DNA from: an uncultured Chlamydiae bacterium
GTDB taxonomy: Bacteria; Chlamydiota; Chlamydiia; Chlamydiales; SM23-39
Reading direction: 5' to 3'
Length of the DNA: 64,000 nucleotides
NCBI GenBank assembly: GCA_963828125.1
Contig: CAWHDP010000002.1
Coordinates: forward strand, 704,001-768,000
Part shown: piece by piece, positions 14,086 to 57,554 of the stretch
Numbering within the stretch: position 1 is the stretch's first letter
How the letters are laid out: each line of letters begins with the position of its first letter
Made by a program: the position numbers and the translations under genes
The notes under the pieces: model-generated
Seen by the model: only the letters and a program-made list of their open reading frames with translations
Told to the model about the DNA's origin: nothing
Database searches by the model: none

Positions 14086-15771
14086 ATGCTGACTTCCGTC
14101 GAACAGAGAATCCAAACCTGGCTGGACGGCCCTTACGATCCTGAGACGAAAGCGGAAATCCGCCGCCTCCTGTCTGTCGATCCAAAAGGGTTATCGGACG
14201 CTTTTTTCAAAGATCTCTCGTTTGGCACCGGCGGAATGCGCGGCGTCATGGGGATTGGCCCGAACCGGATGAATATTTATACAGTTCGGATGGCCACCCA
14301 AGGACTTGCGCGGTGCATTCAGAGAGCGCCCGAAGCAGAGCATAGAGTATTTATCGGCTACGACGTGAGACGCCATTCACGCGAATTTGCCGAGGAGACG
14401 GCCAAAGTTTTGTCCGGCAATGGAATCCGCCCCCTTCTCTCCAAAGAGGTTTGCCCCACTCCCCTTGTCTCCTTTGCCTGTAGGCACTACGGCTGCACAG
14501 CCGCCGTCATGATCACCGCCTCCCACAATCCCCCTCAATATAACGGCTATAAAGTCTATTGGAGCGACGGGGGCCAAATCGTCCCCCCTCACGATCGCGA
14601 GATCATGGCCGAAGTGCAAAACATCAAAAGCCCCGATCAGGTGCAGATAGGGACGCTGTATGAGGAAATTGGCCCCGAAATCGACGCTCTCTATCTCGCC
14701 GCGCTTAAAAAGCTCCAGATGCTCCCCGCGCTTGCCAAAATTCCTCTAGAGATCATCTATACCAACCTCCATGGGACCGGCATCCGATTGATCCCGAAAG
14801 CCCTCAAGGAGTGGGGTTACACCCACCTTCGGTTTGTCGAAAAGCAGCTCCCCCTCGACGGAAATTTTTCATCGGCCCCCTCTCCCAATCCGGAAGAAGA
14901 GAAAGCGCTTAAAATGGGACTCGAACAACTCCATCAAGAAGGGGGCGATCTTTTGATCGCCACAGATCCCGACGCCGACCGAATTGGCGTCGCCGATCCA
15001 AAGACCCGCTTCACCGGCAACCAAATCGCCTGTCTTTGCCTGCACCACATCTGTGAGACCCTCACCGAGAAGGGAGAATTTCCGCAAAACGGCGCCTGCA
15101 TTAAAACCATCGTCACCACTGAGCTTTTCAGAAAAATTGGAGAGAGTTTTGGCGCCAAATGCATGGACGTCCTCACCGGCTTTAAATACATCGGCGCATA
15201 CATCGGCCTCTGGGAAAAGGCTTTTGACGGATATCAGTATCTCTTTGGCGCTGAAGAGTCTTATGGCTATCTCTTTGGCACCTTTGTCCGCGATAAAGAC
15301 GCGATCTCGGCCGCCTGTCTCATCGCCGAAGCGGCCGCCAAAGCCAAAAGCGAAGGGTTCACCCTAACAGATCGGCTCGCCCAAATCTATCGCCGCTACG
15401 GCATCTACCGCGAATCGCTGACGAATCTGGTCTTTTCCGACAGCCAAACAGGGATGGATCAGATGAACGCCCTGATGAAAAACTTACGCCGCTCCCCTCC
15501 CCTTCAAATGGACGGAAAGCCCGTTGTGGTTTTTGAGGACTATCTTCTCGGCAAAGGGAACCTCCCCCCATCGGACGCACTCCGTTTTTGGCTTGCCGAC
15601 GACACAAAAATCGTCATCCGCCCCTCCGGCACCGAACCGAAAGTAAAAATCTACACCGAAATCGTCGAAAAAAAGACAAACGACATCCAATCTGCCGACC
15701 TTCGCCTGAAGCAAATGACAGAGGCGTTCCTCAAAGAGTTCATCTATACTGCGGCCACCCCAAAAGCGTGA
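14086..15771 (+). CDS. pgm: phosphoglucomutase/phosphomannomutase
   Basis: FGTGGMRG, TASHNP, TDPDADR, EESYG, RPSGTEPK; last residues YTAATPKA and the stop come from a family A repeat. Confidence 0.93.
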   Translation: MLTSVEQRIQTWLDGPYDPETKAEIRRLLSVDPKGLSDAFFKDLSFGTGGMRGVMGIGPNRMNIYTVRMATQGLARCIQRAPEAEHRVFIGYDVRRHSREFAEETAKVLSGNGIRPLLSKEVCPTPLVSFACRHYGCTAAVMITASHNPPQYNGYKVYWSDGGQIVPPHDREIMAEVQNIKSPDQVQIGTLYEEIGPEIDALYLAALKKLQMLPALAKIPLEIIYTNLHGTGIRLIPKALKEWGYTHLRFVEKQLPLDGNFSSAPSPNPEEEKALKMGLEQLHQEGGDLLIATDPDADRIGVADPKTRFTGNQIACLCLHHICETLTEKGEFPQNGACIKTIVTTELFRKIGESFGAKCMDVLTGFKYIGAYIGLWEKAFDGYQYLFGAEESYGYLFGTFVRDKDAISAACLIAEAAAKAKSEGFTLTDRLAQIYRRYGIYRESLTNLVFSDSQTGMDQMNALMKNLRRSPPLQMDGKPVVVFEDYLLGKGNLPPSDALRFWLADDTKIVIRPSGTEPKVKIYTEIVEKKTNDIQSADLRLKQMTEAFLKEFIYTAATPKA

Positions 15772-15792
15772 ATTTGGGGCGGCCGCAGTATA
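15745..15792 (+). repeat. 48-bp palindromic MITE-like element, family A short form
   Basis: TATACTGCGGCCACCCCAAAAGCGTGAATTTGGGGCGGCCGCAGTATA. Confidence 0.92.
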
Positions 15793-15866
15793 ATTATCGG
15801 TATTAATAATTATTTTAAATTAAATTAATTATTAATAAAATGAAATAAAACAAACAGGAGTATTTC

Positions 15867-16916
15867 ATGTACGTAGAGAGTTCCAATGGCAGCGCCCCCT
15901 ATATGAATCCACAGCAAGGAGGCAATCCCAGTAAAGGCGCGGAAGTCTATGCAGGCGATACATGTTATATTGATATGGGCATTTTGTATGGCGGCGAGTC
16001 GTTTATGACATGGTGGCCGAATGTCGGGATTGATCAAACGAAATTTGACGCCTATTTGGATAGTCTTTTTGCTAGCTTCAAGAAGAATGGGGTAAATATG
16101 ATGGATCTCTCCTTTGCCCAGCTCTGCGACATTGAACAGCTCGCACAAGGGAAGGGAGAGGGAGCTTCTGGCAATGATAAGATCTCTTCGATCTTTGCCG
16201 ACGGCTACGAGGTAATCCGATCGGATGGGACAAGTACGGGTCAAAACTTTCTCCAATACATGACAGCCCGCGCCCATGCGGACGGAATTAAAGTAGACGT
16301 CTCTTTTGGGGGAGCGAACGCCTCCAGCACCGACTGGGATCCAGGCAAGGGAACGGCGGGAGATCTAGCCAATTTTATGAATGAGTACAATATCGATTCT
16401 GTCGATTTTGATATGGAGACCTCACTGCCCCAAGGGGTCGATTACAATCAGTTTTTCAGCGAGCTTCATTCGTTATTACAGTCCAGCAATAAACAGATGA
16501 TTCTCACTGTGGAAGGGGATTTGAGTAATGCCAAGAAATTAGATTTGAACAACTTTGACGGCGTAAATCTCATGCTCTACTCCACCTCCCAATACTACAT
16601 TGATGCAGATAATGACACTTGGGGCCTCAAGCAGTGGATTGCGGCGGTTGGCAATCCACAAAAAATCCACGTCGGCTTTTACGATTCGATCCCGTATGAA
16701 AATCCATCGGCAAGCGCCGGCGAGCCATACCCCATTCCGGAGGGACTCTCTCGGGGAGATGCGGCAGCCTTTGTCTACGAAAGCGCTCTCAATGAGCTAG
16801 GTTTAACTCCTGACCAGGTAGGCGAACCGTTCTGGTGGTCGGATAATCCGATGACTCTCGCGCAAGATCAGGTGATGCAGGACTTTTGGAGCTACCTGAA
16901 CGGAGAAAACAGGTAA
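15867..16916 (+). CDS. glycoside hydrolase family 18 (chitinase-like) protein
   Basis: KVDVSFGGA and DSVDFDME (DxxDxDxE) motifs, VNLMLY; AGGAG RBS. Confidence 0.82.
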   Translation: MYVESSNGSAPYMNPQQGGNPSKGAEVYAGDTCYIDMGILYGGESFMTWWPNVGIDQTKFDAYLDSLFASFKKNGVNMMDLSFAQLCDIEQLAQGKGEGASGNDKISSIFADGYEVIRSDGTSTGQNFLQYMTARAHADGIKVDVSFGGANASSTDWDPGKGTAGDLANFMNEYNIDSVDFDMETSLPQGVDYNQFFSELHSLLQSSNKQMILTVEGDLSNAKKLDLNNFDGVNLMLYSTSQYYIDADNDTWGLKQWIAAVGNPQKIHVGFYDSIPYENPSASAGEPYPIPEGLSRGDAAAFVYESALNELGLTPDQVGEPFWWSDNPMTLAQDQVMQDFWSYLNGENR

Positions 16917-16934
16917 TCTCGGGCTAAGTCGAGG

Positions 16935-16982
16935 GATACTGCGGCCGCCCCAAAAGTGTGAATTTGGGGTGGCCGCAGTATA
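16935..16982 (+). repeat. family A short palindromic element
   Basis: GATACTGCGGCCGCCCCAAAAGTGTGAATTTGGGGTGGCCGCAGTATA. Confidence 0.92.
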
Positions 16983-16983
16983 A

Positions 16984-18348
16984 TTATTCCCTGACTTTTG
17001 TCAATTGATCGGTCTCGATCTCCAGTGATCTCCCTTCCGCCTGAACTGTAGCCATATTGCCCACGAGTCCTATAATCACTCCTTGGGCTTTTGATCCATT
17101 CTCTGTCCTATAATGGACATGATCATTGACGTGTAAAGTGGGTGATTCTGGACACTCTACTGAGTATTCATTGTGCTGACTCATATCTGACCATGGAGAA
17201 AGCACATTGTCTGGAATCTCAGACAGACCCCCGTTCGTCGATGATGTAGCGGCCTTGGCTTGGAGCATAGCCCCCTGTTTCATTGATTTGCCGGATTTCG
17301 TATTTGCTGGGCTCGATTGTTGCGCTGGCGTATTCATATTCATACTCAACAGCGCGTCGTCTTTTGTGAAAAAAATAGTATCAATCGAGAATTGATGGCG
17401 GCCATTTTTACTAAACCCAACCAGTTGGCCATTTTGGATATACCCACCTGCAACCCTAGGTATGATAGGTCTTCGTCTTCTAGGTCTTACTGTTTGCACA
17501 TTTTGCGTTGAATACGGCGTCCTACGTCGCTTAATACGTGAATACCAGCGCTCACCTCGAGTTAATGCGATTTCAAATGGACCTTCTTTCTGCAAATGAT
17601 AAAACAATATGTAGTAAACTCGACACTTTATTTGCAAAGCTTGAATGCTTTTAATTATTTCGTATTTATCCTCCCGACCTTCATATCCACCTTGATAAAT
17701 TCTAGGTGGAAGAGTCTCAAGTCTTCGATTATCCATATCGATTGTAGTACCACCATTTTGCATGAATAAACTAGGACGATTACGTTTTTTCGGAAACAGG
17801 TTACGATGATCGGTTGTTGTCGATTCTTTCTTTGATGGACCTGCAGCTACATCGCTCTCCCCAATTTTGGCAGGATCCGAGTCGTTCGCATCGGGAGTTC
17901 CGTCTCCCTCTTCAGACGGTTGAGAGCCTTCCGAATTTTGTTCAATCCCATCTGAGGTTACCCACTTGAATGGACTGGCGTCCACATGACCAATCATCCT
18001 GACATTCCTCTCTGGTACGAGAAATGGTTCACAAACTCGTTGAAACGCACTAGCGGCTGATTGGATGGATCGTTGACTGCGATTTGAATCCGTATTTCCT
18101 GCCCCGACTAAATGTTGATTTTGAGGGTCTACATAATCTTTTGGATATATCCACGTGAATGGACTGTTTTCCGCATGGCGAAAGATATCGGAACGACTCT
18201 GCGGACCTGTCGGAATGATGGCAAATGGTTCAGACTCTCGTTGGAACCCATTAGCGACTGATTGACTGCTACTTGAATCCGTATTTTCTGCCTCGATTCG
18301 TTGATTTTGCAAATCAACATTAATGATTAAAGAATTATTTACATTCAT
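16984..18348 (-). CDS. hypothetical low-complexity protein with N-terminal internal duplication, putative effector
   Basis: 454-aa ORF, AT-richer; duplicated QNQ..NTDS..FQR..EPF..SPF.W unit; basic clusters. Confidence 0.75.
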   Translation of the reverse strand: MNVNNSLIINVDLQNQRIEAENTDSSSSQSVANGFQRESEPFAIIPTGPQSRSDIFRHAENSPFTWIYPKDYVDPQNQHLVGAGNTDSNRSQRSIQSAASAFQRVCEPFLVPERNVRMIGHVDASPFKWVTSDGIEQNSEGSQPSEEGDGTPDANDSDPAKIGESDVAAGPSKKESTTTDHRNLFPKKRNRPSLFMQNGGTTIDMDNRRLETLPPRIYQGGYEGREDKYEIIKSIQALQIKCRVYYILFYHLQKEGPFEIALTRGERWYSRIKRRRTPYSTQNVQTVRPRRRRPIIPRVAGGYIQNGQLVGFSKNGRHQFSIDTIFFTKDDALLSMNMNTPAQQSSPANTKSGKSMKQGAMLQAKAATSSTNGGLSEIPDNVLSPWSDMSQHNEYSVECPESPTLHVNDHVHYRTENGSKAQGVIIGLVGNMATVQAEGRSLEIETDQLTKVRE

Positions 18349-18691
18349 AATATTTACTCACATTTTATTTAAAGGAAATGATAATACAAATCAATGGTTA
18401 AAATCAAGTAATATATACAATCGTTCGCGGAACCATAATGGTAGATATCCGCCCCCTAGAGCTGGGGGAACAGACCCCCTTGCGGTGTTTTGGAGAGGAA
18501 TACCAGGATAGGCTAGCTCGGTTTCTAAAAGTGTTCCTGAGCGGTCAGAGGCGAACATGGGGGTAGGAACCACAGGCTCAGAGTGTCAAGTTGTTTACTT
18601 ACTGTTTTTGCTACCTATATTACCAAAAATAGACTAAATTTGGCAGTATGGGCAGCAAGATGATGTACAAAAAGCCCCCAATGTACTCAAT

Positions 18692-18916
18692 GTGGTGCAT
18701 GGTCTGATTGAGGACAAGAGAGGATATCAGTTCATCTTGACCGGCTCGAGCTCCAGAAAACTGAAAAAAGAAGGGGTCAATCTTTTGGGAGGCAGAGTTC
18801 TCTTGAGGCACATGCCCCCTTTTTTCGCAGGGGAATTGGGTAAAGCCTTCGAGTTAGATCGCAATATCAATGTGGGCATGCTGCCTATTGTTTTGGACTC
18901 CCCTTTTCCAATAGAA
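18692..18916 (+). pseudogene. internal fragment of an AAA_14/DUF4143-type ATP-binding protein
   Basis: VHGLIE..FILTGSSSRKLKKEGVNLLGGR..PFFAGEL..GMLP; no Walker A part, truncated at repeats. Confidence 0.75.
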
Positions 18917-18945
18917 AAGCCGATTCTTGAGTCATTTCCGGTATA
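18917..18945 (-). repeat. half copy of family C TATAC-ended element
   Basis: Reverse complement TATACCGGAAATGACTCAAGAATCGGCTT matches 30649-30677 at 26/29 positions. Confidence 0.75.
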
Positions 18946-18991
18946 TACTGCGGCCACCCCAAAAGTGTGAATTTGGGGTGGCCGCAGTATA
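18944..18991 (+). repeat. family A short palindromic element
   Basis: TATACTGCGGCCACCCCAAAAGTGTGAATTTGGGGTGGCCGCAGTATA, sharing a TA with the family C half copy. Confidence 0.93.
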
Positions 18992-18998
18992 ACTCTGT

Positions 18999-21110
18999 TC
19001 AAGGGCTATTCGGCCGCTCTTTTTTCGGATATTTGACCCTGATATGGTGGGACAAGAGGAGAGTTCGGACGAGGGCTTTTTTCACTTTGCCGAGCTCTTC
19101 GAATGTGAGTTGGCACTGATCGAACTGTCCATCTTCCGCTTTCTCGGCAACAAGCCGGTTTACAAGCTCTGTCAATGTCTGTTCGTTGATCTCTTCGAGC
19201 GAGCGGGTGGCGGCTTCCACACTATCACAGATCATGATGATCGCCGACTCTCGGGTGCGGGGCTTGGGTCCCGGATAGCGAAATTCTCTTTCATCCACCT
19301 GTTCGATGCGCCCCCCTTTGAGCTCAAGTTGCTTCCGATAGAAATAATAGACGAGGGTCGTCCCGTGATGCTCGAGAATAATATCGATGAACCCCTGAGG
19401 CAGATGGGCTTTCCTAGCAATCGTTTCGCCGTCTGTTACGTGGGAGATGATGACTTGGGCCGACTCAAGGGGGGTGAGGAGTTGGTGAATATTGATGGCC
19501 CCCTGCTGGTTTTCTGTGTAGAACTGGGGGTTATTCATTTTGCCGACGTCGTGGTAGAGGGTTGCCGCCCTACAAAATAGGCCGTTTGCGCCAATGGCCT
19601 GGGCGCAGATTTCGGCGAGGTTGCCGAGGACAAGGCTGTGCTGATAGGTGCCAGGGACTTCGAGAGCAAAGCGGCGAAGGAGTTCGCTGCCGGGATCGGT
19701 ATACTCCATAAGGGTCATGTCAGTGACGACGCCGAAGAGCGTCTCTAGAGCAGGAAGGAGACCGACGACGAGGATAGCGGTGATGAGGAGAAAGGCAAAA
19801 GAGGCGCCGATATTGATGAGAAGAGAGGCGGAGGCGAGTTGATTTTCCGCGAGGGTGAAGGCATAAAGGACAGGTATAGCGCTCAGCCAAGACTTCATGC
19901 AGACGGTAAAGACCTCTTTCCTCTTCCGAAGGCCGCGCGAGCCGATGATCACGACAATCGAGGTGACAAGGTTCAGGATGAGGAAGTGGCTATGATCTAC
20001 GGCGAGGCTGACCGAAAGGAGGATCGAGAGAAAAGTGGCTGCAAAAAGAGCAGTGCGAGGCGAGAGAAGAATGCAGATGAGAATCGTGGCAAACGGGGCC
20101 ACAACAGGATAGCGGATCGCTTCAATAATATCAGATGTGCTCTTCAGGAGAATATATTCGGTGAATTTGGCAAAGAGAAGGGTCAATATGACAATGCAGA
20201 CAAAGAGCGCAATCTCTCGGAGCGAGCGGATGAAGGTGGGCTGGCTGATCCGAAAATAAAGGCCGCTAATGGTAACAAAAATAACTGACAAAATAAGACT
20301 GGCGAGGATTGTCAGGGGATCCCAAATATTGCGGCTTTCAGAGATCGCCTGCTTCATCGCTTGCATCATCGTTAAATGGCGCGATGAGATCAATTCGCCC
20401 TGATTGATCATCCGCGTGCCGGCGAGGACTTTGGTCATTTTATCGGGGACGGTCCTCCCGACTTGGGCCCTCAAACTCCTTTCGAGAGCGCCGTCTTGGA
20501 TGAGGCTCCAGGAGCGATGTTGAAAAGAGCGGATCACAAAATCGACGGTCTCTCGATGAAAAGCGCCGTTTTGCATAATCTGTAGAGCCGTCCTTTGCCA
20601 AAATTCTTGCGGAAGGGCGAGGGGAGTATTGGCCCCTTCAGGGATATAGTCGAAATAAGAGCTATCGGGAAGGTGCAGCTCTTTAATTTTTTGGATAGTG
20701 CGCGGATCAGTGAAGCGGGCCTCGATCAAGAGGGTCTCCAGCTCATCGGAGGCTTTATACATCTCTTCAAATGTACTTTTCGGGGCCGCTTCGCGCCAGG
20801 CTTTATTCCGAATCAAATCTTCTTCTAGCTCGTAACGGGCGTCCCGAATTTGTTTGTCATCGATCTGATAAATCGCCCCGACGTCTTGCATTGCCTGCTG
20901 CTTCAAGACAATCGTCGTCTCATAATCGGGAAATTCAAAGTCGATCTGAGCGACGATATACCGGGAAGCGGTGGTGTTGAGCTCAAGAACTTCGAGCCGC
21001 ACTTCGCGGAAGTGGAGGAAAAGGGCTAAGAAAAAAACGCAGACAAAGCCAACAAGCAGCCGCCATCCCCGATCATTGGAAGCAAGCCACCCTTGCCAAT
21101 TTTTGTTCAT
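18999..21110 (-). CDS. membrane 7TM-HD phosphohydrolase (PgpH-like cyclic-di-AMP phosphodiesterase)
   Basis: Extracellular domain, multiple TM helices, PGTYQHS, YHDVGK, HHGT, FRYPGPKP, DSVEAA. Confidence 0.88.
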   Translation of the reverse strand: MNKNWQGWLASNDRGWRLLVGFVCVFFLALFLHFREVRLEVLELNTTASRYIVAQIDFEFPDYETTIVLKQQAMQDVGAIYQIDDKQIRDARYELEEDLIRNKAWREAAPKSTFEEMYKASDELETLLIEARFTDPRTIQKIKELHLPDSSYFDYIPEGANTPLALPQEFWQRTALQIMQNGAFHRETVDFVIRSFQHRSWSLIQDGALERSLRAQVGRTVPDKMTKVLAGTRMINQGELISSRHLTMMQAMKQAISESRNIWDPLTILASLILSVIFVTISGLYFRISQPTFIRSLREIALFVCIVILTLLFAKFTEYILLKSTSDIIEAIRYPVVAPFATILICILLSPRTALFAATFLSILLSVSLAVDHSHFLILNLVTSIVVIIGSRGLRKRKEVFTVCMKSWLSAIPVLYAFTLAENQLASASLLINIGASFAFLLITAILVVGLLPALETLFGVVTDMTLMEYTDPGSELLRRFALEVPGTYQHSLVLGNLAEICAQAIGANGLFCRAATLYHDVGKMNNPQFYTENQQGAINIHQLLTPLESAQVIISHVTDGETIARKAHLPQGFIDIILEHHGTTLVYYFYRKQLELKGGRIEQVDEREFRYPGPKPRTRESAIIMICDSVEAATRSLEEINEQTLTELVNRLVAEKAEDGQFDQCQLTFEELGKVKKALVRTLLLSHHIRVKYPKKERPNSP

Positions 21111-21128
21111 ATTTATAATATACCATCC

Positions 21129-22508
21129 ATGTACAAAAGATACCAGGTCTTAGCTCGTAAGTACCGTCCCCAAGCCTTCCGCGACGTCGTAGGTCAAGAG
21201 TCTGCCGTCACGACCCTGAAAAATGCGATCCGCTTCAGCAAAATCGCCCACGCTTACCTGTTCTGCGGCTCCCGCGGGGTCGGGAAAACGACCCTCGCCC
21301 GCCTCTTTGCCAAAGCGCTGAACTGCCACAGCCTCAGTCCCGAACTGGAGCCGTGCAACCAGTGCCCTTCTTGTCTGGAGATCCAATCGGGCCAGTCGCT
21401 CGACGTGATCGAGATTGACGGAGCCTCCAACCGGGGGATCGACGATATCCGGCAAATCAATGAAACAGTGGGCTATGCCCCAAGCCAAGGCCGCTATAAG
21501 ATCTACATCATCGACGAAGTCCACATGCTCACCAAGGAGGCGTTCAACGCCCTCCTTAAAACCCTCGAAGAGCCCCCCGAACAGGCCAAATTTTTCTTTG
21601 CAACCACCGAACCCCATAAAGTCCTCCCCACTATCATCAGTAGATGCCAACGGTTCGATTTGGCCCGGATTGACCCGAGTCGAATCGCCGGTAAATTGGG
21701 GGAGATCGCGGAAGATCTATCCCGCATCGTTGAACCTGAGGCGCTTCAGCTTATCGCCGCCTTCTCGGAAGGGAGCCTAAGGGACGCGGAGTCGCTCTTC
21801 GATCAAATTCTCTGTTTTTCCGAAAAGACGATTACAGCAGGGGTTGTCCGGCAGACGTTAGGCCTCGTCCCTGTAGAGCTCTTCCATTCCCTCGACCAAG
21901 CTTTTTCAAACTTCGATCTCTCCTATGCGTTTGAACTCGTAGATCAACTCTTCCAAACGGGTAAAGATCTCGCCCATTTCCTCGAACAACTCATCGAACA
22001 CTATCGAAATATCGTCTCCGCTAAATGCAGAGCCGGGGAAGGGCATCCTTCGGCCAAACTCTATACCCAACAGCAGGCGCTCTATATCCTCGATCTTTTG
22101 ATCCAAGCCGAAGCGAATTTCCAAAAAAGCACCTTTCAAAGGATCGCCCTCGAATCGCTCCTCCTCCAAATCATCCGGAGCAAAAACCGGATCCCTGTCG
22201 AAGTGCTGATCCGCAGTCTGAGAGAAGGAGTGGAAGAGGGGCCGAAAAATCCCATCGAGGCGCCAGTGGTCGAAAGGGTGCAGATGGTGGAAGCGGAAAA
22301 ACCTAAACCTGTTCAACCCATTGCGGAAACAGCCGCCCCGGCTCCGGAACCCGTATTAAAGCCTACCCCCTTTAATCCGTATGTCTCTAAGAGTCAAGAT
22401 GTTAAGGTTGAAGCGCTAGCTAAAAGCAGCCCTAAAAAACACCCGAGTCATTATGATACAGTCATGCGGTTTGCAGCCGTCGAATTCGAGGGAACAATAA
22501 AAAATTAA
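21129..22508 (+). CDS. dnaX: DNA polymerase III subunit gamma/tau
   Basis: ARKYRPQ, GSRGVGKTT, EIDGASNRG, IIDEVHML, LKTLEEPP, SRCQ. Confidence 0.97.
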   Translation: MYKRYQVLARKYRPQAFRDVVGQESAVTTLKNAIRFSKIAHAYLFCGSRGVGKTTLARLFAKALNCHSLSPELEPCNQCPSCLEIQSGQSLDVIEIDGASNRGIDDIRQINETVGYAPSQGRYKIYIIDEVHMLTKEAFNALLKTLEEPPEQAKFFFATTEPHKVLPTIISRCQRFDLARIDPSRIAGKLGEIAEDLSRIVEPEALQLIAAFSEGSLRDAESLFDQILCFSEKTITAGVVRQTLGLVPVELFHSLDQAFSNFDLSYAFELVDQLFQTGKDLAHFLEQLIEHYRNIVSAKCRAGEGHPSAKLYTQQQALYILDLLIQAEANFQKSTFQRIALESLLLQIIRSKNRIPVEVLIRSLREGVEEGPKNPIEAPVVERVQMVEAEKPKPVQPIAETAAPAPEPVLKPTPFNPYVSKSQDVKVEALAKSSPKKHPSHYDTVMRFAAVEFEGTIKN

Positions 22509-22518
22509 ATAGGTGGAT

Positions 22519-22803
22519 ATGGGAAGCGGTTTTTCGAAGATGAAAAAACAGGCCCGGCTGATGCAAGAACAGTTTAGCCAGGCAAAAAATAAAATGGAAA
22601 CAACCCTCGTCGAGGGGAGTGCAGGCAATGGCCTCGTGGTTGTCGTACTGAATGGGGCTAAAGAATTAAAAAAAATCACCATCCAACCTGAATGTGTGAG
22701 CGATGTCGAGGGGTTGCAAGATCTAATCATCGGCGCATTCGAAGATGCCGCCAGCAAGATCAAGGATCAAAGTCCTGTTGGAGGTATGCCGGGATTTCTG
22801 TAG
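22519..22803 (+). CDS. ybaB: YbaB/EbfC nucleoid-associated protein
   Basis: EGSAGNGLV, DVEGLQDLI; directly after dnaX. Confidence 0.92.
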   Translation: MGSGFSKMKKQARLMQEQFSQAKNKMETTLVEGSAGNGLVVVVLNGAKELKKITIQPECVSDVEGLQDLIIGAFEDAASKIKDQSPVGGMPGFL

Positions 22804-22849
22804 ACAAATATTTTTCATTTTTTTATGCTCTGACTCCAATATTTTAATA

Positions 22850-22867
22850 TGGACATTGGTCATTTAA
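22850..22867 (-). repeat. family B 18-bp repeat (left inverted copy flanking the L,D-transpeptidase)
   Basis: TGGACATTGGTCATTTAA is the reverse complement of 23507-23524 with one mismatch. Confidence 0.75.
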
Positions 22868-22881
22868 CAGGAGTATAAGAA

Positions 22882-23490
22882 ATGAATCTAGTAGACAGCA
22901 CATCAGATATAGAGAGCTTAACAAAGCTGTTCGATGAAAATCGCGACAAATATACAGAGCAGCTTAAGAATTGCCTTCAGATAGCTGAAAAAATACAAGT
23001 TGTCTCTCAACGAATTATTCTTATAGATGCAGCCACTCAAACTCTGCATCTATTTCAAGACAAAGCCCGCACTGTTTCCTATTTTATTTCAACAGCGAAC
23101 AAGGGACTGGGAGAGGTAGACGGTAGCTCTCAAACTCCAAGCGGACTCCACATCATCAAAGACAAAATCGGCGATAACGCCCCATTGACCACTGTGTTTC
23201 AATCGAGAGAACCACGTCCTGACGTGCCATTTAATCCCAATGGTGAGACCACACAAATTACCTCGCGCATTCTCCGTCTCAATGGCCTTGAGGAGGGTGT
23301 TAACAAAGGCGTAAATCAGCAAGGACAGAGTGTCGATTCATATACCCGCTATATTTACATCCACGGAACCAATCAAATCAATGACGTGGGGCAGGCTAAA
23401 TCGGCAGGCTGTATCCGGATGATGCCGAAGGACGTCGCTGACCTATATTCTAGAGTCGATGAAAAGACCCTAGTGTACATCTTCGCCTAA
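22882..23490 (+). CDS. L,D-transpeptidase (YkuD family)
   Basis: ISTA..TPSG, RILRL, YIYIHGT..SAGCIRM catalytic motif. Confidence 0.9.
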   Translation: MNLVDSTSDIESLTKLFDENRDKYTEQLKNCLQIAEKIQVVSQRIILIDAATQTLHLFQDKARTVSYFISTANKGLGEVDGSSQTPSGLHIIKDKIGDNAPLTTVFQSREPRPDVPFNPNGETTQITSRILRLNGLEEGVNKGVNQQGQSVDSYTRYIYIHGTNQINDVGQAKSAGCIRMMPKDVADLYSRVDEKTLVYIFA

Positions 23491-23506
23491 GTTTTTAAAA
23501 ATCAAT

Positions 23507-23524
23507 TTAAATGGCCAATGTCCA
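23507..23524 (+). repeat. family B repeat (right copy)
   Basis: TTAAATGGCCAATGTCCA; core recurs at 46788 and 63707. Confidence 0.75.
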
Positions 23525-23559
23525 GTTTAACGCATGCGTTAAAACAATCTGGATTAAAA

Positions 23560-23607
23560 TATACTGCGGCCACCCCAAAAGTGTGAATTTGGGGTGGCCG
23601 CAGTATA
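23560..23607 (+). repeat. family A short palindromic element
   Basis: Identical to 18944-18991. Confidence 0.93.
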
Positions 23608-23705
23608 ACACATATGTTAATGGGAGGTGGCCCGATCCAAGCCCCAACCCGGACGCTACTCTCCCAGCTCATCTGAGCCACACAGCGCTCACACCTGACA
23701 ATCGC

Positions 23706-24173
23706 TTATTCCCATGGAGATTGTGGGCTTGAGACGCTCACGTCTTCCTCTTTTCCTGAAGAATCCATTTCCTGGTGATCTAGCGAGAAGAAAATAACAA
23801 AGGTAGCTGTTACTATTGGAGCCCGACCATTTTGTTCGCATAGATCCGCTCTCTGCACAGATAATGCTTCTGATCTTAGCTCTCCCTCAATCTCGTTTAA
23901 TATCGTTTTTGAAGCAATGAGCTGAGCAGGACCCTCTATACGAACTTTCCATATAAATTGCTTAGCCTCTGGAGCATCTCCTATAAACTGACATATGTTA
24001 TAATTAGCACCATAGATTACTACATGCACTACATCATACAAACGCCCTTCGTCTTCATTATTCTTAATCATAAAACGGTGATGCAATTCACCCGTATTTT
24101 GTTTTTTATCATGCAGATATTGAAAATAATTAGTTTCAAATGATTGAAATGCCTGTCGAAGCGGTTGTGCCAT
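23706..24173 (-). CDS. hypothetical protein
   Basis: 155-aa AT-rich ORF with no recognised motif. Confidence 0.6.
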   Translation of the reverse strand: MAQPLRQAFQSFETNYFQYLHDKKQNTGELHHRFMIKNNEDEGRLYDVVHVVIYGANYNICQFIGDAPEAKQFIWKVRIEGPAQLIASKTILNEIEGELRSEALSVQRADLCEQNGRAPIVTATFVIFFSLDHQEMDSSGKEEDVSVSSPQSPWE

Positions 24174-24302
24174 GAGTGAGTTCCATTTTGTTGAATAGAC
24201 AGGCTATCACTTTTCTCAATTCCGTGGAATCAAAAAAAGTTTTTGCCAAAATATTCACTGCTCCCGTATACTTCTGGCAATCTTTTTAACCGGAGGTTTT
24301 TT

Positions 24303-24596
24303 ATGTCTGTCAACGCTACTCGCCATCTGCCGTTCTTCACCTTATTTGTGCCGGGTCCCATCCAACCTTTATGCCCATCTCAGCACTCCCCATTGAATTC
24401 ACCGGAACAATCAACAATGGTGAGTGAATCCTATCCATCTAAGCCAGCGCCACCACCGAGCCAAGCAAGTGTGGCAGAGACAATCCCCGACTCTGAGGAC
24501 GATAACAAAACGCTCGCAGAGATTCAGCAAGAATGGGAACAGTCTAGGGCAGACGCCGCCCTTATCGCACAGTCTCAGCAGCCAGAAAATTCTTGA
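24303..24596 (+). CDS. small low-complexity P/S/Q-rich hypothetical protein
   Basis: GGAGGT RBS before ATG 24303; overlaps the ptsI 3' end convergently. Confidence 0.55.
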   Translation: MSVNATRHLPFFTLFVPGPIQPLCPSQHSPLNSPEQSTMVSESYPSKPAPPPSQASVAETIPDSEDDNKTLAEIQQEWEQSRADAALIAQSQQPENS

Positions 24597-26331
24597 GTTC
24601 TTCCGCTGAGGGGTATTCGAGAGCCCCTTCGGCGAGTCTGCAGGCTTCGAGGATCCGCCACTTCCGGATCGTGTGTTTCACGAGCGGAATGTGGCGGGCT
24701 GCGACCGAAAACTCCCGGATGCCAAGACCGATGAGAAGCGGGATCATAGCGGGGTCAGCGGCGCATTCGCCGCAAAGGATGACCGGCTTGCGAGCTCGAT
24801 TAGCTGAAGCGACGACCATCCGGATGAGGCGGAGAATGCTCGGGTGGGTCGAGAAATAGAGTTCAGCTGTGTGCGAATTGCTCCGATCGGCCGCGAGGAC
24901 GTATTGGACGAGGTCGTTCGTCCCAATCGAGATGAAATCGACTTCATCGGCTAGAGCGTCCGACATGATGGCAGTAGAGGGGACTTCAATCATACAACCG
25001 ATCGGGACGTGTTTAGCGGTCTTCACCCCTTTTTGCGTAAGCTCGGTTTGGAGCTCGGACACTTTCTGTCGCACAATACGCATCTCCGAGATATCCGCCA
25101 CCATCGGAATGAGAATGTGGATCTCTCCAAAGTGACTCGCGCGGAGAATGGCGCGGAGCTGAGCATGGAGAATCTCCGGGTAGCGGAGGAGAAAGCGGAT
25201 CGCTCTACAGCCAAGAGCGGGATTGATTTCATGGCCAATGGCAGAAAAATAACGGGCGTCGGGCGTGCCGGGCGGCAGATCCACTTTTTTGTCTCCGCCC
25301 ACGTCAAATACACGGACAACAAGGGGCCTCCCTTTCAGCGCTTTGAGCATCCGCTTATAAATCGTGAATTGCTCCTCCTCAGTGGGAAAAGCTTTGCGGG
25401 AGAAAAATAGGTATTCCGAGCGGAAAAGACCGACGCCGCAAGCGCCGGCTTTTAGGAGCTGATCGATCTCTTTGGGATTCTCCAAATTAGCAAAAATCCT
25501 CACTTCATAGCCATCGATCGTCTCCGCTTTCAGGTGTGAGGCGCTCTTGAGCATTTTGTAGCTCATCTGATGATTCCGCTGGATCTCTTGATATTTCTTG
25601 AGAGTTTGTCGAGTCGGATTGAGGATCACAATCCCCTGTGATCCGTCGACAATGAGAGAGTGGACGTCCAATTTCTTAAGCTGCTTAATGTCGACATTAG
25701 CCACATAGGGGATCCCCTTCGCGCGGGCGATGATCGCAGCATGCGAGGTGAGGCCGCCCACAGCCGTCACAAAGGCGCTGACCAAAGAGGCGCTAGCCTC
25801 CACAGTTTCAGAGGGGACCAGCTCGTGGGTGAGGATGATTGAATTATGGGCCACCTCCCCCATTTTAATCTGCTCAAGGGGGCGGAGATGGCCTAAAATG
25901 CGGCGGGAAACGTCGACAATATCGCGAACCCGCTCTTGAAAATAGTGATCTTTGAGAGTGCTGAAGCGGATTTTATACTCTTCGATGATGTGATGAAAGA
26001 TCGACTCGGTGTTCCTCTGCATATCGCGGATCCGCTCCTCAATCACACTGGTTAGAAGCGGGTCTTGCATCATCTCGAGGTGGGTCCCTAAAATAGAGAC
26101 GATTTCAGGGGGCCCTTCGTTGAGCGAAAGTCTCTGGAGGCCCTCAACATCTCGTCGGCTCAGATCAAGAGCGCGCCGGTACCGGTCGATTTCCACCTCG
26201 ATCTCTTTTTTCGGAATCGCCACTTCAGGAACGAGATCTTCCGCACTGGCAAAAAACACAGGGAATCCAATGCCGATCCCCTTACTGATCGGTATGCCTC
26301 TTAGAATCACCTCTTCACTGCCATGCGGCAT
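24562..26331 (-). CDS. ptsI: phosphoenolpyruvate-protein phosphotransferase (enzyme I)
   Basis: GGLTSHAAIIAR, GLFRSE, NPALGCRAIR, MIEVPS, SIGTNDL, CGE. Confidence 0.97.
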   Translation of the reverse strand: MPHGSEEVILRGIPISKGIGIGFPVFFASAEDLVPEVAIPKKEIEVEIDRYRRALDLSRRDVEGLQRLSLNEGPPEIVSILGTHLEMMQDPLLTSVIEERIRDMQRNTESIFHHIIEEYKIRFSTLKDHYFQERVRDIVDVSRRILGHLRPLEQIKMGEVAHNSIILTHELVPSETVEASASLVSAFVTAVGGLTSHAAIIARAKGIPYVANVDIKQLKKLDVHSLIVDGSQGIVILNPTRQTLKKYQEIQRNHQMSYKMLKSASHLKAETIDGYEVRIFANLENPKEIDQLLKAGACGVGLFRSEYLFFSRKAFPTEEEQFTIYKRMLKALKGRPLVVRVFDVGGDKKVDLPPGTPDARYFSAIGHEINPALGCRAIRFLLRYPEILHAQLRAILRASHFGEIHILIPMVADISEMRIVRQKVSELQTELTQKGVKTAKHVPIGCMIEVPSTAIMSDALADEVDFISIGTNDLVQYVLAADRSNSHTAELYFSTHPSILRLIRMVVASANRARKPVILCGECAADPAMIPLLIGLGIREFSVAARHIPLVKHTIRKWRILEACRLAEGALEYPSAEELKNFLAAETVR

Positions 26332-26600
26332 TATTTTTCTCCAAATTCCATGTCAAAAGCATCCACGAGATGCTGCATTGTTAGTTCGGCGTCATCTCCC
26401 TCGATTGTCACCTCAATCACCGAATTTTTTTTCGCGGCAAGCATCAAGATGCTCATAATGCTTCTCGCGTTGATCGTCTCATTTTTGTGCGTAAAATGAA
26501 CGGACGATTGGCGAGGCTGCAGCAGCTTGACGATCGATGCGGCTGGACGCGTGTGGAGACCCAGCGAATTTTTCACCTTGATTTTACGCACGATTTTCAT
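26331..26600 (-). CDS. ptsH: phosphocarrier protein HPr
   Basis: GLHTRPA and NARSIMSIL. Confidence 0.95.
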   Translation of the reverse strand: MKIVRKIKVKNSLGLHTRPAASIVKLLQPRQSSVHFTHKNETINARSIMSILMLAAKKNSVIEVTIEGDDAELTMQHLVDAFDMEFGEK

Positions 26601-39897: not shown

Positions 39898-39914
39898 GGG
39901 GTGGCCGCATTATA
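39898..39914 (+). repeat. half copy (right arm) of family A
   Basis: GGGGTGGCCGCATTATA matches the family A right end at 16/17 positions. Confidence 0.65.
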
Positions 39915-44821: not shown

Positions 44822-44854
44822 GTTATGAGATCCCTTTATACAAGATTCCCTTTT

Positions 44855-46753: not shown

Positions 46754-46787
46754 AAAAAAAATCTCTTCAGTTTATTGTTTTTTATTA

Positions 46788-46857
46788 AAATGGCCAATGT
46801 CTAGCCCGTATTTCTCGCGTCTGTGTGAGAAATGCGGGGCTATACTGCGGCCGCCCC
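46788..46857. repeat. stack of three repeat families: B core, family E palindrome, left arm of family A
   Basis: AAATGGCCAATGTCTA + TAGCCCGTATTTCTCGC..GTGTGAGAAATGCGGGGCTA + TATACTGCGGCCGCCCC. Confidence 0.8.
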
Positions 46858-47691
46858 CTGAAAGCTCTGTTCGATCGCATCTGTGTAAGCGTTCGATGGG
46901 TTGCCGTCAATCCCTTGATAATCGCGATCAGCATCCCAAATAAACACCCCAACGAGTCCTTCCGATTTCGCGAAGGCAGCTAAATTGGCTGCATCGCTAA
47001 CCGATAGATCATGCCCCATGTCATCTTTACCAGGCATCAGGCCAAGATTGATCTGGCTAGGATCCACGCCGCTGGCGATTAAAGACTGGATATCCGCTTT
47101 AATTTGATCCACATAATTCGAACCAGGCCAAATATCGTATTCCATAATATTAAATTGAGTTACGTCACCTTTAACAAAAGGGAGAATATTGGTATAAACA
47201 TAGCTATCTTGTCCTGGAATTGTCAACGAAATACTCTTATCGGGACCTAAATCGGTTCGTAAAGAGTGAATAAACGCAATTTCGTCTTGAGGATTGGGAG
47301 CATCTTCGATATCTAAATCGAGCCCATCCAGATTAAATTGTTTCACAGTTTGAGCCGCAAGAGCAGCTGTCTCTGCATTCATATGCCCGCTGGCTCCATA
47401 GGTCGCTCCTCCCAAAGCGAGTTTGACCTTGCCCCCTTTTGCATGAATCTCATCAATGGCCGTCTGAAAATCGGCGAGGCTCATCTGCAATCCGCCAATT
47501 CCAGTAATGTTTCCAGACGGATCCGTTGAAAAGGTAAAGTTCCCAAATGAAATATCGACCGTTGCACCCGGCTTAAAATTCGGATCGTTTAAAAAGGCGT
47601 TGAGGGCTTTTTGCCAATTACCGTCCCAACTTTCTAAATAAGTTTCAAAACTGGGAGAAGAAGACGAATTAACTGGATTAATGCCTGACAT
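46840..47691 (-). CDS. glycoside hydrolase family 18 (chitinase-like) protein
   Basis: KVKLALGGA, LDGLDLDIE, NIMEYD, GVFIW; C-terminal GAAAV and stop lie in the family A arm. Confidence 0.9.
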   Translation of the reverse strand: MSGINPVNSSSSPSFETYLESWDGNWQKALNAFLNDPNFKPGATVDISFGNFTFSTDPSGNITGIGGLQMSLADFQTAIDEIHAKGGKVKLALGGATYGASGHMNAETAALAAQTVKQFNLDGLDLDIEDAPNPQDEIAFIHSLRTDLGPDKSISLTIPGQDSYVYTNILPFVKGDVTQFNIMEYDIWPGSNYVDQIKADIQSLIASGVDPSQINLGLMPGKDDMGHDLSVSDAANLAAFAKSEGLVGVFIWDADRDYQGIDGNPSNAYTDAIEQSFQGAAAV

Positions 47692-53702: not shown

Positions 53703-53711
53703 ATTTGCAGC

Positions 53712-54216: not shown

Positions 54217-55113
54217 GAACCTGTTCTTGTCCCTTCTCCACAAACTCCCCATTTAATGAGTTCTCGTATCCAGTAGAGCAAAATACCCATCCCTAGAAAA
54301 CCTTCCCAATATTTCATCCTTCTCTCCCACCGTACGACCCATCGTCGATACTTCCTCTGCAACCACGAAATGCCCCGCTCGACCTTCCATCGATATTTTT
54401 CCAACACTTTTAGTTGACCCTCCGACTTATGTCGCCCCAGGCGTCGATACGGAATGTATGGAAACACCTTCATGGCTAGAATTTGCAGCCGCAATTCCTC
54501 TGCATCATACCCCTTATCGGCCTCTACGATTGGCGTTATCCCTTGAGAAATAATTGGTTTTAACCATCCGCTGATTTTTTTTTAACAGCGGAATCACTTC
54601 CTTGCGTTCGTCGCCAGAGGCCCCCGTACTCGTAGCCTTAAGAGGTTGCCCAAGACCGTCAACAAGGAGATGAGTAGTCATTCCCTTCCCCTTGTATCCA
54701 TAGTCTACTTTTTCTCCACCTCCTTTCCCGGGAGAGAAAAATCCATCGATCGCCAATCGAGTTAAATCAACCATTTTCCATTCGACGCAAACCCCCTCTA
54801 ATGCAGTAAGAATGCGTTCTAAAATTCCGTTTTTTTTCCACTCTCCCAAGTATTTATGAGCGCAGGCTCTGGAAGCCCATTGATCACCGACTGGCACATC
54901 ACACCAGCGGGCCCCCGTCGTCAATATCCAAATCAGGGTGTTCAGAATTTTTCTTGGATGAAGCGGTTGCTTACCTCTGAAAGTAATCCCCCATTTATAG
55001 GGTATGAATGGCTCTACAACAGCCCATTCTTGATCGTTCAGTCCTATAAATTTACCCATAGCCCACCTCCTGTAAAGTAAGTGGACATGATGTCATATAA
55101 AGATTTTATGTTC
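54217..55113 (-). mobile_element. IS5-family insertion sequence; transposase split at an A9 run
   Basis: ORFs 54514-55059 (LNDQEW, WILTTGARWCDVP, IDG) and 54204-54494 region (ADKGYD, RWKVER..SWL..YRR..VRWER); ends inferred from TA|GAAC..GTTC|TA and weak. Confidence 0.85.
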
Positions 55114-55131
55114 TATCTAAAGATATGCTCA

Positions 55132-55214
55132 TATACTGCGGCCACCCCAAAAGTGTGAATTTGGGCAGCTTTCACGCTTGCCCAAATTCACACTTTTGGG
55201 GTGGCCGCAGTATA
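55132..55214. repeat. 83-bp long form of family A with 36-bp perfect terminal inverted repeats
   Basis: TATACTGCGGCCACCCCAAAAGTGTGAATTTGGGCA-11nt-exact reverse complement. Confidence 0.95.
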
Positions 55215-55972
55215 GACGCTCTACCTTTTTGAAAATCCAAGCGAACAACATGTTTCATGAAAAAATCGGACCCCAAATAGCCATCTATATCGTTTACATT
55301 GGGATGAATGTCAATAACTTCAAGATCAGTTGGGCCTAGATCAAATGCTCCAATCTTAAATTTTGAAGTGGAGATTTTCCCGTTTTTTTCACTTCTAATA
55401 CCTGAAAGAGGGGCTGATGTATTGAGTGAAAATCGCTTGATTCCAAAATCGGTTTCAATAGAAAAAACGGCACCCCATCGAGTCATTTCAAAAGGAATTT
55501 CTGGAACCCCACATTGAAGATCTTGAGTCTCTTTGAGAATGACAAGAACAGAATGATGAAAATCAAGTATTAAATTACATGTCTGCAAGATATTTCTTCC
55601 TATGATTCCGGAAATATGATTTTCCAGCATACGGGATTCTTCTTGGGCCAGTGTATGAATAATCTCCCCATTGTGCAGACGGATCCGTTGAAGTAGATAT
55701 GTGGATGATGTGATTTCCTGAGCATCCAATCCCAAGATAGTGTGAACGTCAATCCGTTCTTTTTTTAGATTATTTAATACATCCTGTCTCAAAGCAAATT
55801 CACAGGGACTTCCTAAATCGAGAATAAGGGAATAGAATTTCCCTTCAATTTCCACTTTTATCAAGGGTAATCCAGATGAAAATTCCAATGGAATTTGTAG
55901 TGATTTGGATTGTGATATAAAATGACTCAGGGACAAAATCGCCGAAATGAGAACAATAATTTTCGTAATCAT
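55172..55972 (-). CDS. two-domain retropepsin-like aspartic protease homologue (second catalytic Asp replaced)
   Basis: Signal-like N-terminus; LILDLGS, GIIGRN, FSLNTSA, DGYLGSDF; C-terminal ILRPPQKCEFGQA is repeat-derived. Confidence 0.8.
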   Translation of the reverse strand: MITKIIVLISAILSLSHFISQSKSLQIPLEFSSGLPLIKVEIEGKFYSLILDLGSPCEFALRQDVLNNLKKERIDVHTILGLDAQEITSSTYLLQRIRLHNGEIIHTLAQEESRMLENHISGIIGRNILQTCNLILDFHHSVLVILKETQDLQCGVPEIPFEMTRWGAVFSIETDFGIKRFSLNTSAPLSGIRSEKNGKISTSKFKIGAFDLGPTDLEVIDIHPNVNDIDGYLGSDFFMKHVVRLDFQKGRASILRPPQKCEFGQA

Positions 55973-56907
55973 TAAAAAACAATGGCTCCGCAGACCTTGG
56001 AGGATTCTCCAATAAACGCCCTATTATTTTTAAAATCAAGATAAATGGCATGCTTTTTGAAAAAATCAAGTCCCAAATAACCGTCTGCATCTACAGAATG
56101 ATCCATTTCAAAGAGCAAAATATTTAACGGTCCAAAATCGTGACCACCGATGGAAAATTTCATTGATGTAAAAGTCGGCAGTCCCAAAGCCGCCTCTTTT
56201 TTTAACGAACTATCTACTTGAGATTCCCTGAGAATCGATGCGCTGGCCCCCGTATCTAAAATGAATTTTTTTATTCCAATATCGGTTTCAATAGACACAA
56301 TAATACCCCAACGATTGATTTCAAACTCCGTTTCAAAAAGATTTCGAATATGCCAATGATCTTTTTTAAGTTGATCCAAGCTATTTGTCACAAATATCAT
56401 TGAGTTTGGAAAGTCAATAAATAAATTATTAGAGATAAAAAAATCTCTGCCGATTCGACCCATAAATGGAGCTTGAATTCTCCTTTTTTGATCCGATCGC
56501 CAGAGCAAGGCTCCTTTTTCGATAAAATTTTCGTGCTCTTCAAGGACTATGGCGTTTGTACATTTTATATTTTTTTTTTGAATACAAGGAATCAAATAGC
56601 TGTTTTCTTCATATTGGTTCCCTTTGATGTCTGTTATCAGAACAATGCCAGCGAATTTTTTTTTATGAATGATTTTTAATGCATTGCCGAACAAAGCGAA
56701 TTGGCAAGCGGCTCCCAAATCCAGTTTTAACGGGTATTTGTTTCCTTCAATTTCGACCTCGATTAAAGCGCTATTTCCTGCAAATTGCACAGGAATTCGG
56801 GCATAGCATCCCCTACGAAGGGTCACTCCCAGATTGTATCGATTGAAGAAATCCCAACATCCAAGAAGCACCAAAATCGATAAGAATATGAGAGCCGTTT
56901 TTTTCAT
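55972..56907 (-). CDS. two-domain retropepsin-like aspartic protease, possible lipoprotein
   Basis: MKK..LVLLGC N-terminus; LKLDLGA, GRIGRDF, FILDTGA, DGYLGLDF. Confidence 0.85.
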   Translation of the reverse strand: MKKTALIFLSILVLLGCWDFFNRYNLGVTLRRGCYARIPVQFAGNSALIEVEIEGNKYPLKLDLGAACQFALFGNALKIIHKKKFAGIVLITDIKGNQYEENSYLIPCIQKKNIKCTNAIVLEEHENFIEKGALLWRSDQKRRIQAPFMGRIGRDFFISNNLFIDFPNSMIFVTNSLDQLKKDHWHIRNLFETEFEINRWGIIVSIETDIGIKKFILDTGASASILRESQVDSSLKKEAALGLPTFTSMKFSIGGHDFGPLNILLFEMDHSVDADGYLGLDFFKKHAIYLDFKNNRAFIGESSKVCGAIVF

Positions 56908-56910
56908 CTA

Positions 56911-57279
56911 TTAAAATTCATATTCAATACTCGCTTTCACTTCGTATGAAACATTGCCTTTAGTATCGATAGTCACCTCTCCGCTTGTACTCACCTCAGT
57001 ATTCCCGTCATCCGATTTCGTACTCGCGTGCCCTTCAACAGTCACTTCACTATTTCCTTCTTTGTCTTTCTCTACAGTAATTTCACCTCCCACGGTAGTC
57101 ATCGGTTTCATTTTATAAGACGAATGTCGGCTAAAAGTATTTAGTATTATGTTTGCACAATTTTCGTCAACATTTTTTACCTCAATTTGTTGTTTGTTTG
57201 GTTGAATGATTTCTCCGTAGATAAAAGCTATCTCTTCCACGTTGCTATCATAATCTGAAACGATGCCCATACATATCAT
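56911..57279 (-). CDS. small beta-strand-rich hypothetical protein ending in EYEF
   Basis: 122-aa ORF ending 3 nt before the protease start; start codon uncertain. Confidence 0.65.
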   Translation of the reverse strand: MICMGIVSDYDSNVEEIAFIYGEIIQPNKQQIEVKNVDENCANIILNTFSRHSSYKMKPMTTVGGEITVEKDKEGNSEVTVEGHASTKSDDGNTEVSTSGEVTIDTKGNVSYEVKASIEYEF

Positions 57280-57359
57280 CCCATTGGTTGGTTTAAATAG
57301 AGTTAAGCATTCTATATGACATAGAAATTTTTGTCTAAAAAAATTTCTATTTGCTGGAT

Positions 57360-57479
57360 TTAGAGGGAGGGTTTGTTAAAGACGAGAGGCTTTAAATAAT
57401 CGATGAGTTCGGGGAGATCCTTGTCCACTGTATTCCAGACTTGTTCAAGATCAACATCAAAGTAACCACGGGTGAGCTG
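57360..57479 (-). pseudogene. 3' remnant of a DUF86/HepT-like HEPN ribonuclease
   Basis: Manual translation QLTRGYFDVDLEQVWNTVDKDLPEL; Rx4H motif lost. Confidence 0.7.
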
Positions 57480-57507
57480 AGCGGCATTCAGAATGTCCAG
57501 GTTCTTT

Positions 57508-57554
57508 TATACTGCGGCCACCCAAAAGTGTGAATTTGGGGTGGCCGCAGTATA
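57508..57554 (+). repeat. family A short palindromic element (47 bp)
   Basis: As 18944-18991 but one C shorter. Confidence 0.92.

Follow-up and report, generated by a model that had tools for sequence, protein, structure and literature searches.

A family of short palindromic elements, here called family A, is repeated through a stretch of 64,000 nucleotides from an uncultured Chlamydiae bacterium (GenBank assembly GCA_963828125.1, contig CAWHDP010000002.1). This stretch, referred to as the window, corresponds to G000:C2:704001-768000 in our numbering, where G000 is the genome (2.37 Mb in two contigs, 95% complete). A preliminary description, made from the window alone, had proposed that the copies bracket accessory genes as same-orientation direct repeats and might mobilise them as cassettes. 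The comparisons reported here lead to another view, namely that family A is probably a non-coding miniature transposable element with inverted repeats (MITE) of the IS630 type, which duplicates a TA target and is present in 96 copies in both orientations. These copies are likely to have been spread in trans by an IS630 transposase, likely landing often one gene away from their donor, and are likely to have collapsed in place afterward.

Structure and target sites of family A

Copies were collected with a 17-nt end motif, which returned 60 two-ended elements and 36 single ends, and with a looser pass, which raised the count to 99. After exclusion of three doubtful three-mismatch single ends inside genes, 96 copies remained, i.e., 62 two-ended and 34 single; three degenerate copies found later were left out of the statistics. 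There are 141 end matches in G000, none in the reversed control, and none in any of 40 relatives (0/40), an abundance that chance does not come near to explaining. The exact pattern also gave no match in the 40 relatives or in public genome and metagenome contig collections, scans in which the genome itself was possibly not included.

Measured with their TA pairs, the two-ended copies fall into 52 short ones (47–56 bp, 47 of them exactly 48 bp), nine of 78–83 bp, and one of 168 bp. Without the TA pairs, the series runs from 164 bp through 74–79 bp to 44 bp, with arms of 15–34 bp inside the TA and no encoded transposase. The 83-bp copy minus the stretch between its two TTTGGG hexamers is exactly the 48-bp copy. 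The short form thus derives from the long one by a deletion at 6-bp microhomology, and the asymmetric loop is the scar of this deletion. The short form has one complete end, and its other end is without the GTGTGAA motif that is near-invariant among related ends; for this reason it is predicted to be immobile. The hairpins are likely to have collapsed in place after insertion.

The target site is visible in a second repeat, family B, whose paralogous sites exist in an empty form, GAGGAAGC-TA-ATAGG, and in a filled form that holds a 44-bp or longer element and one extra TA. Five of these sites are empty, and two are filled with both halves kept. TA duplication is described as a mark of Tc1/mariner/IS630 elements, including ISY100 of the IS630 family, which shares this property with family A (PMC2170065). 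The central TA of family B is occupied by nine family A copies at nine loci (among them C1:116249 and C2:1745070), which indicates that the site is a strong hot spot or that the two elements, once nested, spread together as a unit. Five of the seven two-ended copies at this centre retain just one family B half, the flanks switching at the element boundary. At G000:C2:1145550-1146150, head-to-tail tandem arrays of family B halves, with 76- and 92-bp periods, surround one empty family B site.

Regarding the neighbouring genes, 13 called genes run in frame into a complete end and stop after eight added residues, the element-encoded tail being YTAATPK(V/A) or a close variant. The core gene pgm is among them (15745-15771 in the window), and another case lies at 18944-18970. 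In eight of the 13, pgm being one, the element sits in the former stop codon, and taking it out brings back TAA or TAG. The preference for one fusion orientation (10 versus 1) is not relied on because read-through cases escape that count. A related MITE in the genome G044 yields YTATAQKV tails.

The predicted hairpin is strong (−38 kcal/mol for the short form), and such hairpins near gene 3′ ends are the argument for a site-specific system, either integron-like attC sites or the REP/RAYT palindromes that the preliminary description had also mentioned. We regard this as highly improbable. RAYT (PF01797) has 0 matches and no integron integrase was detected (best 82 bits against a cut-off of 265), these absences not being absolute in a genome that is 95% complete; moreover, the copies are dispersed in both orientations, and the TA duplication and the IS630 ends point elsewhere.

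IS630 elements with related ends

The sole full IS630 element of G000 (C2, 1.376 Mb) was considered as the cognate partner and rejected, as its ends differ from those of family A. Among 29 IS630 loci examined in other genomes of the family, one, in G014, has ends in the register of family A. A degenerate pattern was built from the family A and G014 ends, which makes the matches in G000 and G014 trivial. With it, related ends were detected in 16 of the 102 other genomes of the family and never in the reversed control. They include both ends of a 1175-bp IS630 element in G050 (locus L151), whose transposase matches NF033545 with 111 bits at a cut-off of 100, and the relatives hold many hairpin MITEs of 164–176 bp with related ends.

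Compared in register, the IS630 ends of relatives are identical to family A at 18–25 of 31 positions, i.e., they are related and not identical: 18/31 and 21/31 at L151 and 25/31 for the right end at L213, with a G044 MITE at 25/28. What the chlamydial-clade elements at L151, L153, and L213 have in common with family A is TATAC at the tip and GTGTGAA at positions 22–28. Family A is unlike them in having no transposase, in the interior of its longest form, which is without a match to the L151 element, and in differing at least at 6 of the 31 end positions. G000 retains an 86-bp piece with 94% identity to the transposase gene of L151; no cognate transposase was detected in this 95% complete genome, a result that concerns present activity and not origin. 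A since-lost IS630 of the L151 kind would most likely have spread the 164-bp MITE into TA sites, presumably by cut-and-paste. When the G050 element was compared with the contigs of four sequencing runs, only short pieces and none spanning it were returned, contigs of this kind showing presence and not absence. Taken together, the empty and filled sites and the matching IS630 ends uphold the TA-targeting, IS630-linked MITE identity that the preliminary description had considered.

Near ybaB in G003 (L172:848-885) lies a collapsed relative of 38 bp, which a hairpin scan of the relatives' junctions overlooked and the end-pattern search recovered. This relative, in another species, collapsed independently, and reduction to a one-ended stub may therefore have happened more than once in this MITE lineage.

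Other small palindromic families are found in the window at 5994-6058, 23503-23527, 28344-28506, and 46784-46840. The first, right after tRNA-Cys, resembles the resident IS630's right end in its opening letters and may be a MITE of that element, and a 20-bp family with 47 copies may be another collapsed MITE.

Among known systems, family A is like RUP of Streptococcus pneumoniae, which is linked to IS630-Spn1, and the Correia/NEMIS elements of Neisseria, as these are outlined in one account (PMC2229807). All are non-autonomous and shorter than 200 bp, with terminal inverted repeats, TA termini with target duplication, a long stem-loop, several size classes, reading-frame fusions, and ends in common with an IS630 element. 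In contrast to them, family A has an unrelated sequence, a dominant form of only 44 bp with one truncated end, a species-specific distribution (0/40 relatives), and a cognate transposase that was not found in the genome. A search of the literature on MITEs in chlamydiae, with subscription journals and supplements outside its reach, found no paper on family A, and the main text of a Rhabdochlamydiaceae genome paper makes no mention of MITE or IS630 (PMC9723776). Family A is apparently an IS630-linked MITE lineage undescribed in the literature.

Pairing, orientation, and position of the copies

For the statistics that follow, genes are our own heuristic calls, and accessory means that a gene has no match of at least 45% identity and 50% cover in a single relative, G006, a definition that overcalls and takes in about half of the genes. 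Position nulls were drawn from intergenic TA sites. Single accessory genes with a copy on each side number 11 against 3.7–4.2 expected under four nulls (p<=0.002), and bracketed core genes 0 against 0.84, so that the bracketing of single genes announced in the preliminary description stands. Gaps of 0.8–3.2 kb make up 23 of 94 against 8.4–8.9 expected, in a range picked after the gaps had been seen; the single-gene bracket test needed no chosen distance. With a cut at <5 kb, there are 29 gaps against 23.2 expected (p=0.08). Accessory genes alone are enclosed by 18 of the 23 close pairs (78%) versus 73% in the null, and the excess is therefore one of pairing and not of a choice of accessory cargo. 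Local reinsertion near the donor is its likely cause.

As an improbable alternative, independent insertions survived where they were tolerated, pairing reflects uneven permissiveness missed by the nulls, and swapped flanks come from unrelated deletions. This would suit the 31 of 94 family A junctions that also hold another repeat family (odds ratio 10), the heterotypic pairs in G044 described below, and the weak clustering below 5 kb together with the post hoc range. However, a null weighted by other repeats still gives 4.2 brackets against the 11 observed (p=0.002), the bracket test is independent of any chosen distance, and flanks switch at the boundary in five of the seven copies nested in family B.

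Reinsertion near the donor, driven by an IS630 transposase, has several observations to contend with. In the same count of close pairs, families B and C show 5 against 2.6 and 3 against 2.3, with no clear pairing excess, and pairing is therefore not general to the repeats of this genome. In G044, 6 of 43 gaps are close (3.1 expected under a uniform null), and two bracketing pairs join different subfamilies and are thus not donor-daughter pairs. Neighbours share private variants, as local hopping predicts, in 3 cases against 1.4 (p=0.16, not significant), and near-donor reinsertion as documented for eukaryotic Tc1/mariner elements acts over much longer distances (PMC2874221). Simple hopping alone predicts neither the 41 copies at core/accessory junctions against 28.5 expected (p=0.007) nor three islands with copies at both edges. 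Finally, the autonomous element with identical ends that the preliminary description had envisaged was not found in G000, and exact matches in two public collections were 0, the best transposase-linked end being the one with 25/31.

The remaining junction classes are not enriched, with 10 copies against 16.6 expected between two core genes (p=0.08) and 45 against 50.9 between two accessory genes. A position beside an accessory gene, which the preliminary description noted for the copies of the window, is close to expectation (86 of 96 copies have an accessory neighbour, about 79 being expected from intergenic TA sites). Convergent junctions hold 25 copies against 13.2 expected (p=0.0015). A 3′ end is at most 30 nt away from 43 of the 96 copies (17% expected) and a 5′ end is near 5 of them (19% expected). 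Selection is likely to have spared copies at 3′ ends and stop codons. A simple build-up in AT-rich DNA, another suggestion made from the window, does not agree with flanks of 57% AT versus 59% for unoccupied intergenic TA sites.

The five short copies of the window all have their core on the + strand, from which direct repeats as a rule and a replication-linked strand bias had been suggested. Genome-wide, 32 oriented short copies are on the + and 19 on the − strand (n=51), and 22 of the 51 are on the leading strand as defined by replichores from GC skew (p=0.40). Neighbours within 5 kb share orientation in 7 of 11 cases, and the orientable close pairs divide into five same and five opposite. 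A run of at least five same-orientation copies appears in 94.5% of shuffles, and with such runs common, the shared orientation in the window is a matter of chance. Orientation is random, and neither suggestion is borne out.

The GH18 locus and the question of gene movement

In the window, the five short copies with the core AAAAG(T/C)GTGAATTT, the long copy, and the two single arms are present where they had been reported, and the names given to the flanking genes (GH18, AAA remnant, 454-aa orphan, protease genes, HEPN remnant) agree with Pfam matches and genome comparison. The features are as follows.

15745..15792, + strand: short family A copy 1, TA + 44-bp element + TA, within the pgm stop codon, adding an 8-residue tail; G13 variant in right arm
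16935..16982, + strand: short copy 2, 19 bp past the GH18 stop, with the stop of the 454-aa orphan 2 bp away; G13 variant in left arm, complementary to copy 1; begins GA, not TA
18944..18991, + strand: short copy 3, truncating the AAA_14 remnant on its left, with the 7TM-HD stop 7 bp away on its right
23560..23607, + strand: short copy 4, at the convergent junction of a YkuD gene and a 155-aa open reading frame
39898..39914, no strand given: single right arm (stub), immediately 3′ of the stop of a conserved 114-aa gene
46841..46857, no strand given: single left arm with the G13 variant, placed where a family B repeat has its terminal TA; the second GH18 gene terminates within it
55132..55214, no strand given: long copy, 83 bp, perfect 36-bp arms
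57508..57554, + strand: short copy 5, 47 bp, with the stop of a P-type ATPase gene 8 bp away
14086..15771, + strand: phosphoglucomutase (pgm), core gene, left edge of the island
15867..16916, + strand: GH18 glycoside hydrolase, between copies 1 and 2 (Pfam E 3e-10)
16984..18348, − strand: 454-aa orphan, between copies 2 and 3; no match among the 102 other genomes of the family
18692..18970, + strand: AAA_14 remnant, ending within copy 3 (E 7.5e-7); 48% identity to residues 105-179 of a 416-aa paralogue
18999..21110, − strand: 7TM-HD protein, core gene, right edge of the island
46840..47691, − strand: second GH18 gene, running at its 3′ end into a fusion with a family A arm
54220..55131, − strand: IS5-family element, abutting the long copy; left end 11 times in the genome; a separate family with different ends
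55172..57279, − strand: three-gene unit of a 122-aa protein and two aspartyl-protease-like genes (weak assignments, E 5e-4 and 3e-3)
57363..57506, − strand: C-terminal remnant of a HepT-like (HEPN) gene, adjoining copy 5 (E 2.9e-6)

A possible but unlikely alternative starts from the same MITE and adds that its copies move genes, either as a composite transposon or as a circle of copy plus gene that integrates by crossover into a resident copy and leaves the gene between two hybrid copies; family A would then be actively assembling the accessory islands. The excess of brackets around single accessory genes is consistent with it, as is the island of the window, which has one copy in the pgm stop codon and another 7 bp from the 7TM-HD stop, the two genes almost abutting in G009. 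Further evidence comes from the GH18 locus. No two-ended copies other than 1 and 2 carry G13 in just one arm, in each of the two it is the arm toward the gene, and four further G13 copies are symmetric. A central crossover would leave such a pattern. As a hint, these hybrid arms fit the crossover of a circle (G13 copy and gene) with a resident A13 copy, which an inversion would not produce, and RecA is encoded in the genome. However, the pattern was spotted after the fact, and a permutation over all variants gives p=0.10. Circle integration also predicts direct orientation, which the five same and five opposite pairs do not follow; same-orientation short pairs expose one truncated outer end; and islands with copies at both ends are 3 of 227 (p=0.14–0.23 after allowing for junction class).

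Moved cargo was sought at the flanks of the copies, where recurrences that represent other repeat families were set aside, as was a single 45-bp match between paralogous genes. Among 158 end flanks, no gene-sized cargo is duplicated beside another copy; two unique stretches, of 69 and 48 bp, are each repeated along with an element end, and these count in favour of movement. With the GH18 gene of 15867..16916 as query, none was found in 13 genus relatives; homologues occur in 7 of the 102 family genomes, at eight loci (some near contig ends) that have no family A-like ends nearby. Likewise, G015 and G003 have the whole protease unit with no family A ends, and 14 homologue loci of the unit show no convincing one. 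The accessory genes are thus present in relatives without the repeats; together with the random orientation, this makes two of the three findings that the preliminary description had named as refuting its proposal. In four sequencing runs, the stretch at 12000-28000 of the window yielded near-identical sequence only and no empty site, and apparent copy-to-copy joints, which have 20–29 letters on their short side, are taken to come from other loci where the repeat occurs.

The pgm/7TM-HD junction measures from about 0 to 4.3 kb, with different or no cargo, in seven relatives without family A. The convergent junctions pgm/7TM-HD (15771-18999) and ybaB/ptsI (22803-24562) differ in their accessory genes among almost all of the genus relatives examined (L013-L023), and insertion recurs at these hot spots independently of family A. 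The best reading of the bracketed genes is that they are bystanders, situated at junctions whose content changes throughout the genus in any case. Of the cassette mobilisation first proposed, what is left is the weak hint of the hybrid arms at one locus; mobilisation itself is not shown.

Three GH18 genes were found in the genome, and each is followed at its 3′ end by a family A copy (16916-16935; 46840-46857; G000:C2:1271925-1271944), and in two of them the copy lies exactly 19 bp past the stop, yet these genes are only 34% identical.

Some copies mark breaks in the surrounding sequence. Copy 3 cuts the AAA gene, the missing remainder is absent from its other side, and the site would be a deletion junction. 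A probable inversion of about 405 kb relative to G006 has family A at both breakpoints (G000:C2:99869-102738 and 507843-512147), where the 5′ end of mutS is also duplicated over 185 bp (99% identity) and a promoter piece over 69 bp. Against G006, the association of copies with synteny breaks loses significance once intervals are stratified by length (p=0.08). Insertion sequences are known to lose their flanks through adjacent deletion and through recombination between copies (PMC11708052). Family A ends are likely to have acted later as points of deletion or crossover, which would have caused the truncated neighbours and swapped flanks. A further truncated gene, the protease gene at 55172 beside the long copy, was considered and rejected, since its G015 orthologue is only about 5 residues longer and just the tip is replaced. 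Inward-facing single ends surround 0.25–2.5 kb of unrelated DNA at G000:C2:38488-40609, 795756-796019, 1232319-1234884, and 1782527-1782771, resembling passenger-carrying non-autonomous elements.

In the remainder of the window, a 1017-aa protein at 2818-5871 has a ubiquitin carboxyl-terminal hydrolase domain (Pfam UCH, E 3e-10) and is likely a host-directed deubiquitinase. A cluster of ackA, phosphoketolase, and P-type ATPase genes at 57562-63715 adjoins copy 5 and was likely gained as one block, and an Rfam scan of the window returned two tRNAs only.

Composite transposons bounded by MITEs are already known, which speaks for gene movement in principle. Like the family A pairs, the TIME-COMPs, as they are presented in two reports, place two small elements, direct or inverted, on either side of accessory genes; their cargo recurs at several sites, and the duplication encloses the entire unit (PMC13367494; PMC10969869). 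Family A differs in having no duplicated cargo, and its TA duplication, at 2 bp, is too short to mark a unit. Another model is the translocatable unit of IS26, a one-element circle that integrates at a resident copy; integration of this type would produce hybrid arms like those on either side of the GH18 gene. IS26 itself belongs to the IS6 family, is a full element that encodes its transposase, and leaves direct repeats, whereas the family A pairs follow no orientation rule.

In its widest form, the idea of gene movement would make IS630-derived MITEs the working joints of accessory-gene turnover in environmental chlamydiae, with promoter-plus-gene modules of 1–3 kb captured and re-integrated via crossover in the 44-bp core, or moved as composites, so that host-interaction islands are built gene by gene and the GH18 hybrid arms are the fossil of one integration. 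We consider this doubtful. On the sequence evidence, family A is most likely an ordinary mobile-element family, and no gene has been seen actually carried between its copies.

As such, family A adds an IS630-linked MITE lineage to this chlamydial family, with related ends in 16 of 102 genomes and a clean series of collapse from 164 to 44 bp, and it documents small effects on host genes in the form of an 8-residue element-encoded tail on 13 genes, including the core gene pgm. If it were true that pairs of copies move genes, they would represent a minimal, enzyme-free-looking route for shuffling single accessory genes in obligate intracellular bacteria, and the GH18 locus would make such movement testable in strain data.

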